Part shown: one piece after another, positions 33,675-44,280 of the stretch | Numbering within the stretch: position 1 is the stretch's first letter | How the letters are laid out: each line of letters begins with the position of its first letter | Assembly: GCA_963774895.1 (NCBI GenBank) | Contig: CAVZGN010000001.1 | Coordinates: 450,419 to 514,418, forward strand | DNA length: 64,000 bases | Direction: 5' to 3' | Origin: an uncultured Pseudomonadota bacterium | GTDB lineage: Bacteria > Pseudomonadota > Gammaproteobacteria > Natronospirales > REEB76 | Program-made: the position numbers and the translations under genes | The notes under the pieces: generated by a model | Databases searched by the model: none | Seen by the model: only the letters and a program-made list of their open reading frames with translations | Told to the model about the DNA's origin: nothing

Positions 33675-33750
33675 GCCGGCGTAGCTCAGTTGGTAGAGCA
33701 ACGCATTCGTAATGCGTGGGTCGGGAGTTCGACTCTCTCCGCCGGCACCA
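33675..33750 (+). tRNA. tRNA-Thr (anticodon CGT)
   Basis: gccggcgtagctcagttggtagagcaacgcattcgtaatgcgtgggtcgggagttcgactctctccgccggcacca folds as a cloverleaf with anticodon loop ttCGTaa and an encoded CCA. Confidence 0.95.
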
Positions 33751-33900
33751 ATAACGACGCCCGAGAGATCATGCGCCTCTAGAAAACCGTGGTCAGTCCC
33801 AATTATACGATGATATATTTCGGCCTCAGCGAGATATTTCAATGAGCTTCTTGGTAAACAAGGAATATACAAGAAGGAATGCCCCAAATGCGGCTACTGA

Positions 33901-34428
33901 CTAATCAAGGCAGTCAGCAATAGACAAGAGTAAGAAGTTATCATTACCATTTTTAATCAAGATTATATTTCCATTAGTGTATTTCAGCTGTGCGCTGTTA
34001 TCTCCACTCGCTGTCCAATCCATATGTGGAATGTTCTGAATAATACTATTCGCAATTGATACGGCAGTTAATGATGACTCATTACCAGGTATATCAACAT
34101 AAATTGCGTCAATGGTAGGATTCGCAGTTAATCCTGACCATTCTAGGGTGATGATTCGATGATTTAGCACTATCTGTGATGCATATTGACCACAGGCTGG
34201 AAAGGCTTGTGCGTGAATATCAATTCTGTTACCTAATTGTTTTTCTACATCGCTGTGTGTTTCATTTATATATATTCCAGACCAGCCAAGTCTTCCAGCA
34301 TTTATAGCTACATAATCACCTGTATTATTTAAATGCGGGGTAGGGCGTGAGGCACACGTACAAATAAGCGTGCAGGTGCACAACAACCCCAATAGTTGGC
34401 CTAACCTCAAAGCGATCACTACTTGCAT
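33901..34428 (-). CDS. hypothetical secreted/membrane-anchored protein (175 aa)
   Basis: ATG 34428 gives the hydrophobic, Cys-rich N-terminus MQVVIALRLGQLLGLLCTCTLICTCAS. It is the last gene of the minus-strand island operon. Confidence 0.5.
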   Translation of the reverse strand: MQVVIALRLGQLLGLLCTCTLICTCASRPTPHLNNTGDYVAINAGRLGWSGIYINETHSDVEKQLGNRIDIHAQAFPACGQYASQIVLNHRIITLEWSGLTANPTIDAIYVDIPGNESSLTAVSIANSIIQNIPHMDWTASGDNSAQLKYTNGNIILIKNGNDNFLLLSIADCLD

Positions 34429-34498
34429 CAACTCTATCCACAAGCACCGGCTAATCGGAGTCCCATGGGGCGTATGTAAATAGATTCGAATGCGCGCA

Positions 34499-34831
34499 TT
34501 ATTCTGTCGACTCTCTCAAATCTGCTTCGAATGTATTAACACGCTCCGATCCATCCAAAGTAGAACTATCCACCGACCCCACGATGAGTTCATTGTCGAT
34601 TACTTGAGTGGCATATTGGCTTCCGTACTCAACGATCTCCTCCGGGGTCGCGTAAATCCCCTTTGGATGAATCCAATGTATCTGATCCGACAGCCTGCCT
34701 TCTTCGGGTCGAATTATTGCAATTGAAGCTACATACTTAAGTTGCGCAATCGTGTTCAATACACTTGATGGCAATTTATGTGCCGTCACTTTTATTACAA
34801 ATCCCTTGTATCCAAATACTTTTGGTTGCAT
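34499..34831 (-). CDS. island paralog family member P1 (110 aa), unknown function
   Basis: A ggaggg SD lies 7 nt before the ATG. MQPKVFGYKGFVIKV...YVASIAII...HPKGIYATPEEIVEYGSQYATQVIDNE shares the family pattern with P2-P4. Confidence 0.7.
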   Translation of the reverse strand: MQPKVFGYKGFVIKVTAHKLPSSVLNTIAQLKYVASIAIIRPEEGRLSDQIHWIHPKGIYATPEEIVEYGSQYATQVIDNELIVGSVDSSTLDGSERVNTFEADLRESTE

Positions 34832-42142: not shown

Positions 42143-42754
42143 ATGCGCAGGAATTTGCCTGGCCTAGTTGTATCGCTCGTCATCAGCATTATTCTGGTTT
42201 TGACGGGATGTATTCCCCGCTCCACAAAGCCGGATGTGCTTATGATCCCTGAAACAGGTGACGGCCAAATTGTCAGATTGATGGACTACGTCAACACCGT
42301 CTTGAGTCTGCCACCGGCTGCTCAGGCGGCCACGCAGGAAAACCTTAGGCAGCAATATAATCTAACGCAGTTCCCCGAAGACCGGATGCGACTTGCGCTT
42401 TTGGATGTTCTGTCGGACAGGCCGTCGCGCAATCTGGATGAGGCTGTGTCATTAGTATCTGGATATAACTGGGAAGTAGTGGGGCCGGGATTCAAGGGCT
42501 TGGCCAATCTGCTATTAAATATTGCCAGTAGTCAGCAAGCAATCGCCACAATTGACCAGTCACTCGCGCAGCAATTGGCTTCGGAGCGCTCACAAAAAGA
42601 TCATCTTCAACAACAACTGGACGCGTTGAAGAGTATCGAGAAAACCATGGATAAACGCGACAAGTCGATAGTGGCTCCACCCATCCGCAAGCTGCCGCCA
42701 GCCTCAACCAGCAACTCACAACCTCCAGCCACACCCCCTGGGGAGCAGCTTTGA
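42143..42754 (+). CDS. lipoprotein encoded between kinase and regulator (QseG/YfhG-like position)
   Basis: Lipobox LVLTGC. 203 aa. The position mirrors E. coli glrK-qseG-glrR. I cannot assert sequence similarity to QseG. Confidence 0.55.
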   Translation: MRRNLPGLVVSLVISIILVLTGCIPRSTKPDVLMIPETGDGQIVRLMDYVNTVLSLPPAAQAATQENLRQQYNLTQFPEDRMRLALLDVLSDRPSRNLDEAVSLVSGYNWEVVGPGFKGLANLLLNIASSQQAIATIDQSLAQQLASERSQKDHLQQQLDALKSIEKTMDKRDKSIVAPPIRKLPPASTSNSQPPATPPGEQL

Positions 42755-44127
42755 AAGCCACGCCCGCAAAAGCGATCTTGACTACGGGACGTATTCTGGT
42801 TGCTGACGATGACCCCGGCCTGCTGCGCCTGTTAGTCATGCGTCTGACCGCTGCGGGGCACGAGGTGCGTACGGTGGAAAGCGGCGAACAGGCCTTGGCG
42901 CAGATCCCGCTGTTCCGGCCACACGCGGTCATAACCGATATGCGCATGGCGGGTATGGATGGTATTGAGCTATTTAACAACATACGGCGCCATGATCAAT
43001 CTTTGCCAGTGATCATTCTCACCGCTCATGGCACTATTCCTGACGCCGTGGATGCCACCCATAAAGGAGTATTTGCCTATCTCACCAAACCCTTCGATAG
43101 CAAATCACTGTTGAAATGGGTGAACGATGCCTTGCGGATATCCGGCAAGCTTGAATTAAAAGATGTTGAAAACGCAGATGCTGCATGGCGTGCGGACATT
43201 ATCACACGCAGCCTGCTGATGGAGGATTTGTTGCGTCAAGCGAAGCTCGTATCTGCGGGCGATACGGCGGTTCTCATACAAGGTGAGAGTGGTACCGGCA
43301 AGGAACTATTGGCGCGTGCCATTCACAACGCCAGCCCGCGCGGCGACAAGCCGTTCATAGCCGTCAACTGTGCCGCGATCCCGGAAACCCTGCTGGAATC
43401 CGAGCTTTTCGGATACAGCAAGGGCGCATTCACCGGTGCAACCTCGGACCGGCGCGGCCTGTTTCAGGCCGCACATACCGGTACTCTATTCCTGGATGAG
43501 ATTGGCGACATGCCTTTGAGTTTCCAGGTGAAATTGTTGCGTGCGTTGCAGGAGAAAGAAATCCGGCCGGTTGGTTCGAATAATCCTATCGCAGTGGATG
43601 TACGCATTATTTCGGCCACGAACCATGACCTTGAAAAGAAGGTCTCGGAACAGGGGTTCCGCGAAGATCTATATTATCGGCTGGCAGTAGTGCCGCTGAC
43701 CATGCCACCGCTGGCAGCCCGCCGCGAAGATATTCCGCTCCTGGTTACCCATTTCCTAAGCCATGCGGGAGGAAGCAATACAAAAAGCATCAAAGGATTT
43801 GCACCCCGGGCCATGGAACTATTATTGAGTGCGCCTTGGCCGGGCAATGTGCGGCAGCTACAGAACGTAGTGGAACAAACCGTAGCACTTACCACCACCC
43901 CCCTCATACCGGAAGTCCTGGTACAAAATGCCCTGCGTGAGAAGACCGGACAAGTCACTTCCCTGGTCGAAGCGCGGGAACATTTTGAACGCGAATACCT
44001 GGTACAACTACTGCAAATCACCGAGGGCAACGTAAGTCAGGCAGCACACCTGGCGCAGCGGAATCGCACTGAATTCTACAAACTTTTACACCGTTACCAA
44101 CTTAAACCAGAGGAATTCCGATCCTGA
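42751..44127 (+). CDS. sigma54-dependent response regulator (GlrR/QseF-like, NtrC family)
   Basis: The receiver domain reads ILVADDDPGLLRLLVMRLT...PVIILTAHGTIPDAVDATHKGVFAYLTKP, close to my memory of GlrR. The AAA+ domain shows GESGTGKE and GAFTGA. A C-terminal Fis-type HTH is present. The TTG start overlaps the upstream stop. Confidence 0.85.
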   Translation: MKATPAKAILTTGRILVADDDPGLLRLLVMRLTAAGHEVRTVESGEQALAQIPLFRPHAVITDMRMAGMDGIELFNNIRRHDQSLPVIILTAHGTIPDAVDATHKGVFAYLTKPFDSKSLLKWVNDALRISGKLELKDVENADAAWRADIITRSLLMEDLLRQAKLVSAGDTAVLIQGESGTGKELLARAIHNASPRGDKPFIAVNCAAIPETLLESELFGYSKGAFTGATSDRRGLFQAAHTGTLFLDEIGDMPLSFQVKLLRALQEKEIRPVGSNNPIAVDVRIISATNHDLEKKVSEQGFREDLYYRLAVVPLTMPPLAARREDIPLLVTHFLSHAGGSNTKSIKGFAPRAMELLLSAPWPGNVRQLQNVVEQTVALTTTPLIPEVLVQNALREKTGQVTSLVEAREHFEREYLVQLLQITEGNVSQAAHLAQRNRTEFYKLLHRYQLKPEEFRS

Positions 44128-44234
44128 TTCGGTGCGAGTTGATACCGCCCATATATTAACAGCGGATTCTGTACTTTGAGAAGGGCGAGCGCCGCATGTA
44201 AGTGATTTTGATCGAACGCTTAAATATAACTTGT

Positions 44235-44280
44235 ATTCGTAATGCGTGGGTCGGGAGTTCGACTCTCTCCGCCGGCACCA
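44235..44280 (+). repeat. attR: displaced 3' fragment of tRNA-Thr (46 bp)
   Basis: attcgtaatgcgtgggtcgggagttcgactctctccgccggcacca is identical to 33705-33750. Confidence 0.9.

Follow-up and report, generated by a model that had tools for sequence, protein, structure and literature searches.

The locus described here raises the question of how 10.5 kb of DNA came to lie between an intact tRNA-Thr(CGT) gene and an isolated, perfect copy of the 3' part of that same gene, when no integrase is encoded between the two. The locus belongs to a stretch of 64,000 nucleotides from an uncultured gammaproteobacterium, which we call the window and number from its first letter, and the DNA enclosed by the two copies, at positions 33751-44234, will be called the island. 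We consider, with a probability of roughly 60%, that this island is what a site-specific integrative element, similar to the so-called cis-mobilizable elements (CIMEs), has left behind after decay, and that a tyrosine integrase would have brought it into tRNA-Thr(CGT). The features on which this reading turns are the following:

33675-33750, + strand: intact tRNA-Thr(CGT) gene, the integration target (ARAGORN; Rfam tRNA model, 70.8 bits)
33705-33751, + strand: core of the left attachment site (attL), the 47-bp copy within the tRNA gene, from the anticodon loop to CCA plus 1 base
33752-33900, no strand: 149-bp spacer of unique sequence; in relatives the corresponding place is taken by an integrase gene or what is left of one
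44182-44234, + strand: arm A, the non-coding end of the element next to attR (about 50 bp), homologous to the arm of the fragments in the related contigs L084 and L085
44235-44281, + strand: core of the right attachment site (attR), a perfect 47-bp copy of the 3' part of the tRNA gene, standing alone

Is the second copy of the repeat an attachment site at all? An earlier reading of this DNA made from its letters, here the original prediction, had described an exact 46-bp repeat in the same orientation, once within the intact tRNA-Thr and once as an isolated fragment, and this holds and can even be extended. Exactly two copies of the 46-mer, both on the + strand, are present in the window (33705-33750 and 44235-44280), and none of 100 dinucleotide-preserving shuffles contained two matches to it, while the identity continues for 1 base past the 46-mer, giving an exact repeat of 47 bp. 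Its sharp left boundary coincides with tRNA position 31/32, at which the anticodon loop starts, and the DNA upstream of the second copy has no similarity to the tRNA 5' half; neither ARAGORN nor Rfam calls a tRNA at this second copy. The island is in this way flanked as a tRNA-integrated island would be, by the complete tRNA gene on one side and, in the same orientation on the other, by a direct repeat of its 3' part. To judge from these alignments, the second copy is an att-type scar and not a decayed tRNA gene, because the approximately 50 bp upstream of it are homologous to the arm that precedes isolated tRNA-Thr fragments in relatives. The att-type duplication of the part from the anticodon loop to CCA, as originally proposed, is thus borne out by the sharp boundary together with the arm homology to L084 and L085, and the same two observations dispose of the decayed tandem tRNA gene that had been named as one way in which the proposal could fail.

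The related contigs L084 and L085, which come from different samples, place the homologous cargo (hereafter the block) beside such a core and an integrase remnant. In L084, a fragment of 46 bp of tRNA-Thr, 100% identical to the gene, stands alone 1.2 kb left of the block, and L085 has the same fragment with 45 of 46 positions identical, the mismatch being at the first base. The 50-120 bp upstream of these fragments, that is, their arm A, are homologous to window 44182-44234, and L084 430-528 matches the arm plus core of the window (44182-44280) at 86%. From the first base of the core rightwards L084 and L085 are 99.95% identical over 13.2 kb, whereas to the left of the core they have in common only the 120-bp arm (87%), beyond which they are unrelated; this makes the core, as far as the comparison of the two contigs tells, a site-specific recombination boundary at which a different element has been accreted on the left in each of them. 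Directly right of the core, both contigs hold the last 42 codons of a tyrosine integrase of the family also found in L183 and L016 (74% identity to the L183 fragment, E 3e-14), and this remnant is followed by a GGDEF gene and then by the block, whose orientation towards the core is that seen in the window. On the right, the 99.95% identity ends precisely at a MITE-like (miniature inverted-repeat transposable element) sequence of some 175 bp (L084 13476-13651, equal to L085 13334-13509), which has terminal inverted repeats (CAGTAGTGTCCCAACG...) and is absent from the window.

Could an integrase have been overlooked in the window itself? Pfam and NCBIfam scans of all credible open reading frames (ORFs) of the island found no integrase, excisionase, transposase or transfer family, a search for the serine-recombinase motif found none, and six-frame tblastn of the window gave chance-level matches only with E. 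coli IntA, the P4-like integrase of the distant relative L069, the 343-aa integrase and the Xis of L016, and the L183 integrase fragment as queries. Two weak IntA-like matches (window 53670-53783 and 60867-60950) were on inspection put down to chance, and the window genes at 44-64 kb include no mobility function. The gap of 150 bp between the tRNA and the first island gene (33751-33900), also reported originally, is there, and its spacer at 33752-33900 contains no integrase remnant by tblastn and resembles none of the relatives' loci fetched for comparison. With Pfam, NCBIfam, tblastn and motif search all negative, the absence of integrase, excisionase and transfer genes from the island stands as first described, and so does the view that it would be movable only in trans, since no integrase lies in the segment. 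The best 120 database homologues of the truncated integrase found at tRNA-Thr cores are all short (124-237 aa, protein hits P0160-P0279), none of them is carried by the source contig, and C-terminal integrase fossils may be systematically left beside tRNA-Thr cores. Several of these 120 short homologues sit on contigs of 30-430 kb. In wider searches, the sole plasmid match of the island by megablast was a stretch of 49 bp from the tRNA region, attributable to chance, a scan of viral contigs for the 33-nt core gave no match, none of the relatives showed genes for conjugation or mobilisation, and no integrative and conjugative element (ICE) or integrative and mobilizable element (IME) carrying the block was found. 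The island thus keeps attL and attR and has no genes for integration, excision or transfer, which are two of the marks of a CIME.

The behaviour of the same tRNA gene in other genomes is of key importance here. A Fur scan of species-representative genomes recovered 80 loci, and the pairing of fur with tRNA-Thr is kept in dozens of them, in Woeseiaceae, Thioalkalivibrio and many other Gammaproteobacteria. On the left side of the tRNA, the backbone of L001, the closest relative, aligns collinearly with the window at 84-85% and that of L002 at 82-84%; no relative remains homologous to the window beyond the tRNA, each one examined has other DNA at the site, and ccm or island genes follow the tRNA in none of them. 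The original prediction was to fall if all related genomes carried the island at this locus with a backbone-like composition, and this is not the case, given that L001 has the start of an AbiE-type unit after tRNA-Thr and its block adjoins kdp instead. Extra copies of the tRNA 3' part lie downstream of the gene in L002 (two) and L006 (one). In a sister species, whose Fur is 87% identical to that of the window, even strains with identical Fur differ in the DNA after the tRNA, which is occupied by a 2.3-kb unit with one 538-aa gene, by a 2.0-kb AbiEi/AbiEii unit, by a region of tetratricopeptide-repeat (TPR) and ankyrin genes, or by a peptidase S9 gene. Neither the 2.3-kb nor the 2.0-kb unit has an integrase, and each closes with arm B, about 180-200 bp of conserved non-coding DNA (in which there is no conserved ORF), plus a 45-bp tRNA repeat that is perfect in most copies; arm B also closes two units with other cargo, that of L006 and the second one of L002. 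The repeat of the AbiE unit is followed by 136 aa of a truncated tyrosine integrase (PF00589), whose gene reads towards the core and stops 23 bp short of it, and chromosomal cysD comes next. An intact member of that integrase family, 343 aa long, stands in L016 after the tRNA-Thr and 160 bp, followed by an Xis-like helix-turn-helix (HTH) gene, and in the distant L069 a P4-like integrase follows tRNA-Thr. The cores themselves are perfect in the window, L084, L180 and L183, and are decayed elsewhere: L179 has 5 mismatches vs. none in L180 for the same unit, and the copies in L006, in L002 and at window 60840-60866 are degraded. All of this makes tRNA-Thr(CGT), in our reading of the loci compared, an active and strain-variable hot spot with an identifiable integrase family, where repeat-bounded units lacking an integrase appear to be common, and the likely cognate family is that of the 343-aa enzyme of L016.

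Two further observations were made at this site. In L004, two RHS/YD-repeat polymorphic-toxin C-terminal cassettes and small genes, read from translations only, follow tRNA-Thr at 10797-15095. Besides, some relatives have one or two additional tandem copies of a 120-bp unit upstream of tRNA-Thr, and these contain the initial 19 nt of the gene. The 19-nt repeats lie 120 bp apart at L179 10472-10490 and 10592-10610, occur once in L180-L183 and are also present at L003 6335-6353 and L011 10470-10488; they are absent from the window.

How, then, would the island have reached its present state? Most likely, an element of this kind would insert by means of its tyrosine integrase into the part of tRNA-Thr(CGT) that runs from the anticodon loop to CCA, and the ancestral layout common to the window and the L084 lineage would have been core, integrase, GGDEF gene (possibly), block, further cargo, arm and core, with the island presumably carrying its own integrase at that stage. 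In the L084 lineage the integrase would have shrunk to 42 codons, and in the window it would have gone entirely, and the GGDEF gene too, with 149 bp left in their place. Arm A in the window is only about 53 bp long and lies 28 bp past the end of the block homology, and this short arm and short distance suggest a second internal deletion in the window island. Both att cores would have survived these losses, attL in a functional tRNA gene and attR with approximately 50 bp of family-specific arm, and excision or movement would now occur only if a matching integrase were supplied in trans. The cores would stay perfect because recurrent rounds of integration and excision at one core or the other, or else gene conversion with the tRNA gene as donor, refresh them. 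We infer such refreshing because perfect cores are unexpected at the age of the divergence from L084 while other copies at the same site have decayed, and we consider it a better explanation than recent import.

Recent import had been one of the original suggestions, next to selection, and it has to be abandoned. The island is indeed AT-richer than its surroundings, as first noticed, with a G+C of 0.494 for 33902-44153 vs. 0.582 in the 5 kb to the left and 0.546 in the 5 kb to the right. A search with the 203-aa protein encoded in the block, which returned identities graded from 84% down to 45%, located a 10.2-kb block in at least six related genomes, at 72-82.5% identity and in five different neighbourhoods:

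L082 (same metagenome-assembled genome as L001): 10.2 kb collinear, 81.5%; kdpFA on the left, three unrelated genes and then non-orthologous ccmFGHI on the right; no tRNA fragment
L087, L089 and L174: a shorter version of the block, 72-75%; ruvABC, yebC and a glucosaminidase gene on the left, polysaccharide deacetylase, lpd and sucBA on the right; no tRNA fragment
L175: full block; a plastocyanin-like gene on the left, other genes on the right; no tRNA fragment
L084 and L085: block at 82.5%; arm, 46-bp core, integrase remnant and GGDEF gene on the left, OsmC and DoxX on the right

The pairwise identities of the block are tree-like, with the window, L082 and L084 at 80-82.5% from one another, L175 at 76-78% from those three, and the others at 72-76%, and its G+C is approximately 0.50 in every genome that carries it. 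Because of these tree-like identities and this constant composition, the block appears to be an old resident with an intrinsic base composition, and the cargo is, on this comparative evidence, long established in the lineage and not a recent import. Recent acquisition is contradicted by the identity of 80-82.5% to the copies in three sister lineages and of 72-78% to the more distant ones, set beside a flanking backbone at about 85% to the closest relative, and the low G+C loses its value as a sign of import, being the same in every carrier genome. A foreign origin of the cargo is therefore unsupported, either by composition across the carriers or by the phylogeny of the block. A metagenome scan with the ExbB alignment added no further carriers, since its generic pattern WGIMNSF drew TolQ homologues of at most 49% identity among the matches listed. 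The proximity of block and ccm genes in both the window and L082 was considered as shared ancestry and rejected, given that the CcmI proteins are only 38% identical and the two ccm clusters are not orthologous.

Several observations weigh against our reading of the island as a decayed integrative element, and we suggest keeping them in mind. The empty site, with fur, tRNA-Thr and ccmE contiguous, for which the original prediction had called, was found in no relative, and tblastn finds no trace of an integrase in the window itself. Block homology to L082, L084 and L175 ends at the first and last genes, with no conserved non-coding ends, and as far as these alignments go the block shows no sign of moving as a unit that brings its att arms along; in L082, L087, L089, L174 and L175 it lies in ordinary chromosomal surroundings with no tRNA fragment. 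Finally, with a divergence of approximately 18% from the L084 lineage, a neutral 47-bp repeat should carry substitutions, and its perfection needs an extra assumption.

The perfection of the repeat leads to the first of the alternatives, namely that the island is still active and is mobilised in trans by an integrase encoded elsewhere or on a visiting element, this activity being what keeps the 47-bp cores perfect. It would account for the perfect cores here and in L084, L180 and L183 next to the decayed ones in L179 (5 mismatches), L006, L002 and window 60840-60866, for the 2-kb units without integrase that are polymorphic among strains with identical Fur, and for the tandem layout of other element, arm, core and block unit in L084 and L085, and mobilisation of CIMEs by accretion has been documented in other bacteria (PMC5704250). 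Against it, there is no integrase of the relevant family in the window and none of the best 120 homologues on the source contig, the copies of the block in different species are 72-82% identical in a tree-like manner with no sign of recent interspecies transfer, and the strain polymorphism could equally come from homologous replacement via the conserved flanks, all of which leads us to regard present activity as unlikely.

The second alternative starts from the ordinary surroundings of the block in most carriers: it would be vertically inherited chromosomal DNA that had at no time been carried by an integrative element, trapped by a deletion or rearrangement between the tRNA gene and the orphan attR scar of a lost element. 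In the clade of L087, L089 and L174 the block does have a stable core-genome setting, with ruvABC on one side and sucAB on the other, and in L082 it stands beside kdp; its divergence follows that of the backbone, its G+C is equal in all carriers, it has no conserved non-coding ends, and the cutting of arm A to about 53 bp, 28 bp past the block homology, suggests a deletion junction. A simple integration, however, puts only DNA of the element between attL and attR, and chromosomal DNA in that position needs an additional event, while the L084 block, which has the same orientation and is accompanied by a core and by the remnant of an integrase, speaks for descent from a common island; we find the trapping of resident DNA a doubtful account, more so than present activity.

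An artefact of assembly, in which unrelated regions were joined through the shared 47-mer, is very improbable: short-read contigs of the same species from three samples do all end inside the repeat (L176-L178), and L081 begins inside it, but contig breaks are to be expected there from a genuine repeat, L081 runs from the core into 9.6 kb of island sequence at 100% identity, L176-L178 join fur to the core, and L084 and L085 independently have the same block beside a tRNA-Thr core. Least credible of all, and practically without a chance, is a leftover of a tandemly duplicated tRNA-Thr gene, which has nothing in its favour beyond the shared sequence and against it a perfect 3' half with an undetectable 5' half, the sharp boundary at the anticodon loop, an upstream DNA that is the element arm common to L084 and L085, and the silence of ARAGORN and Rfam.

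If the island is read as a decayed integrative element, then it is a structure of a known kind and not a new one, and this island is a further example of it. CIMEs are derivatives of ICEs or IMEs that have no integration and transfer genes and keep attL and attR (Pavlovic 2004; Bellanger 2011; reviewed in PMC5704250). Structurally, the window island resembles them in keeping both sites without integration or transfer genes and in the tandem accretion seen in a related contig, and it differs in the lack of conjugation and mobilisation genes among the relatives and in having an uncultured gammaproteobacterium as host and a tRNA gene as target, whereas the original Streptococcus CIMEs target fda. 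At the ssrA gene of Dehalococcoides, fifteen islands without integrase lie in tandem arrays with a conserved motif upstream of each repeat and were read as CIMEs (PMC3146451). The likeness to our locus is considerable, with a single-copy small-RNA gene as hot spot, direct repeats of its 3' end bounding the islands and a motif before each repeat, but the Dehalococcoides system has the serine recombinase DsiB and a 20-bp repeat of the tmRNA gene, whereas here we find a 343-aa tyrosine recombinase, a 45-47-bp repeat of tRNA-Thr and arms of 50-200 bp. With the classical tRNA islands and P4-like prophages, the locus shares a regenerated tRNA gene, a displaced repeat from the anticodon loop to CCA and an atypical composition; unlike the classical islands, it has no integrase and its cargo is conserved in the lineage instead of foreign, and, unlike in the P4-like prophages, the integrase of the relatives at this site is short (343 aa), transcribed towards the tRNA and not P4-like, except in the distant L069. 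Compared with an integron-like platform, the window has no resident integrase, and conserved ends made of arm plus core do occur on several small units in relatives.

What does the island carry? Its genes and predicted promoter sites, in order, are these:

33901-34443, - strand: protein of 175-180 aa, possibly a lipoprotein, first block gene; no Pfam or NCBIfam match
34499-34831, - strand: orphan small protein, paralog 1, 110 aa (by alignment)
34978-35298, - strand: BON-domain protein with signal peptide (Pfam BON, 5e-19)
35342-35620, - strand: orphan small protein, paralog 2, 92 aa
35703-35718, - strand: sigma-54 promoter-like site upstream of the operon of paralog 2, BON protein, paralog 1 and 180-aa protein
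36079-36094, + strand: sigma-54 promoter-like site before the 129-aa gene, paralog 3 and exbB-exbD-tonB
36175-36564, + strand: 129-aa secreted protein; no Pfam or NCBIfam family named
36512-36527, - strand: sigma-54 promoter-like site
36650-36943, + strand: orphan small protein, paralog 3, 97 aa
36985-37695, + strand: exbB (Pfam MotA_ExbB, 1.6e-34)
37685-38197, + strand: exbD (Pfam ExbD, 5e-33)
38201-38827, + strand: tonB (Pfam TonB_C, 2.6e-16)
38983-38998, + strand: sigma-54 promoter-like site, a perfect match, before the 67-aa lipoprotein-like gene and paralog 4
39059-39262, + strand: 67-aa lipoprotein-like gene
39291-39566, + strand: orphan small protein, paralog 4, 91 aa
39700-39715, + strand: sigma-54 promoter-like site before the 63-aa lipoprotein and EF-hand genes
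39791-39982, + strand: 63-aa lipoprotein
40019 or 40061 (alternative starts) to 40438, + strand: secreted EF-hand protein (Pfam EF-hand_6, 6e-07)
40691-42142, + strand: sensor histidine kinase (Pfam HAMP, HisKA, HATPase_c)
42143-42754, + strand: 203-aa QseG-like lipoprotein, with a lipobox-like LTGC near the N-terminus in translation
42751-44127, + strand: sigma-54-dependent response regulator (Pfam Response_reg, Sigma54_activat)

The gene of 175-180 aa is kept at the left end of the block in L082, L084 and L175, and the EF-hand protein has a weak match to lanmodulin. When the whole window was searched for the pattern TGGCAC-N5-TTGCW with 1 mismatch allowed, five of its six sigma-54 promoter-like sites fell between 35.7 and 39.7 kb, and four of these five stand 60-85 bp upstream of an operon start. 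This placement of the predicted sites fits control by the GlrR-like regulator of the island, and the cargo looks like a self-contained, envelope-directed sigma-54 regulon because the predicted sites cluster there, four of them just upstream of operons. As the nearest named counterpart of the sensor genes we take the three-component system GlrK (QseE), QseG (YfhG) and GlrR (QseF) of E. coli, which there controls the small RNA gene glmY. Both have the order histidine kinase, small lipoprotein and sigma-54 regulator, with sigma-54 promoter-like sites nearby. They differ in that the regulator of the island, whose top NCBIfam match is by far GlrR, scores 598 bits, below the equivalog cut-off of 763, that its 203-aa middle protein has no family match in Pfam or NCBIfam, and that the predicted targets in the island are protein operons. 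The four orphan proteins, of about 90-110 aa, are mutual paralogs with an N-terminal motif near F-x-Y-K-G-F-x-I-K-V, and their family forms only 8 clusters among 1.84 billion representative proteins. The AlphaFold2 model of paralog 3 (predicted local distance difference test score, pLDDT, 71.6) has a beta-sheet and, after it, two helices, and Foldseek of that model against the PDB gave nothing at E 0.001 or better. In essence, the cargo is a compact regulon in which a TonB system and four orphan paralogs are apparently driven by sigma-54 under a GlrR-like regulator.

Other repeats and gene remnants were met elsewhere in the window. Two 100% identical copies of a 1248-bp insertion sequence (IS) with terminal inverted repeats and an IS30-type transposase (HTH_38 + rve) lie in direct orientation at 13425-14672 and 23129-24376; they bracket 8.5 kb that encode Ada/AlkA-like, DUF3466 and PAS-GGDEF-EAL proteins and form a candidate composite transposon, and no target-site duplication was recognised for the pair. 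Farther right, a 111-bp direct repeat, 91% identical (58854-58964 and 60942-61052), duplicates the last 37 codons of a creatininase-family gene and brackets a 2.1-kb islet (58965-60941) with genes for an SCO4226-like and a thioredoxin-like protein, which carries a decayed arm B plus tRNA core at about 60790-60866; in L006 a homologous islet lies directly between tRNA-Thr and a repeat. We considered 44.3-60.9 kb as a tandem array of older islands and rejected it, since the islet is bracketed by the duplicated creatininase 3' end and therefore did not arrive by accretion at the tRNA site. Next to the island, ccmE (44469-44923) is split over two frames, its N-terminal 56 codons in one and the CcmE domain in the other, as either a pseudogene or a sequencing frameshift.

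In summary, a perfect att repeat and a low G+C do not count as evidence of recent import, given that the cargo here is old and lineage-specific. Going further, it is tempting, if speculative, to see tRNA-Thr(CGT) as a cassette platform in this clade of uncultured soil Gammaproteobacteria, housing units of 0.9-10.5 kb that have no integrase, with cargos as different as the sigma-54 regulon, the AbiE system, the 538-aa protein, a thioredoxin-like pair and a zinc-ribbon protein. Just as tentatively, each unit would end in a conserved arm of 50-200 bp and a 45-47-bp core, and an integrase acting in trans would insert, stack and swap them. Such a platform, if true, would be functionally analogous to integron cassettes while being anchored on a tRNA gene. 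The several small units without integrase but with conserved arms would offer a tractable test case for mobilisation in trans.

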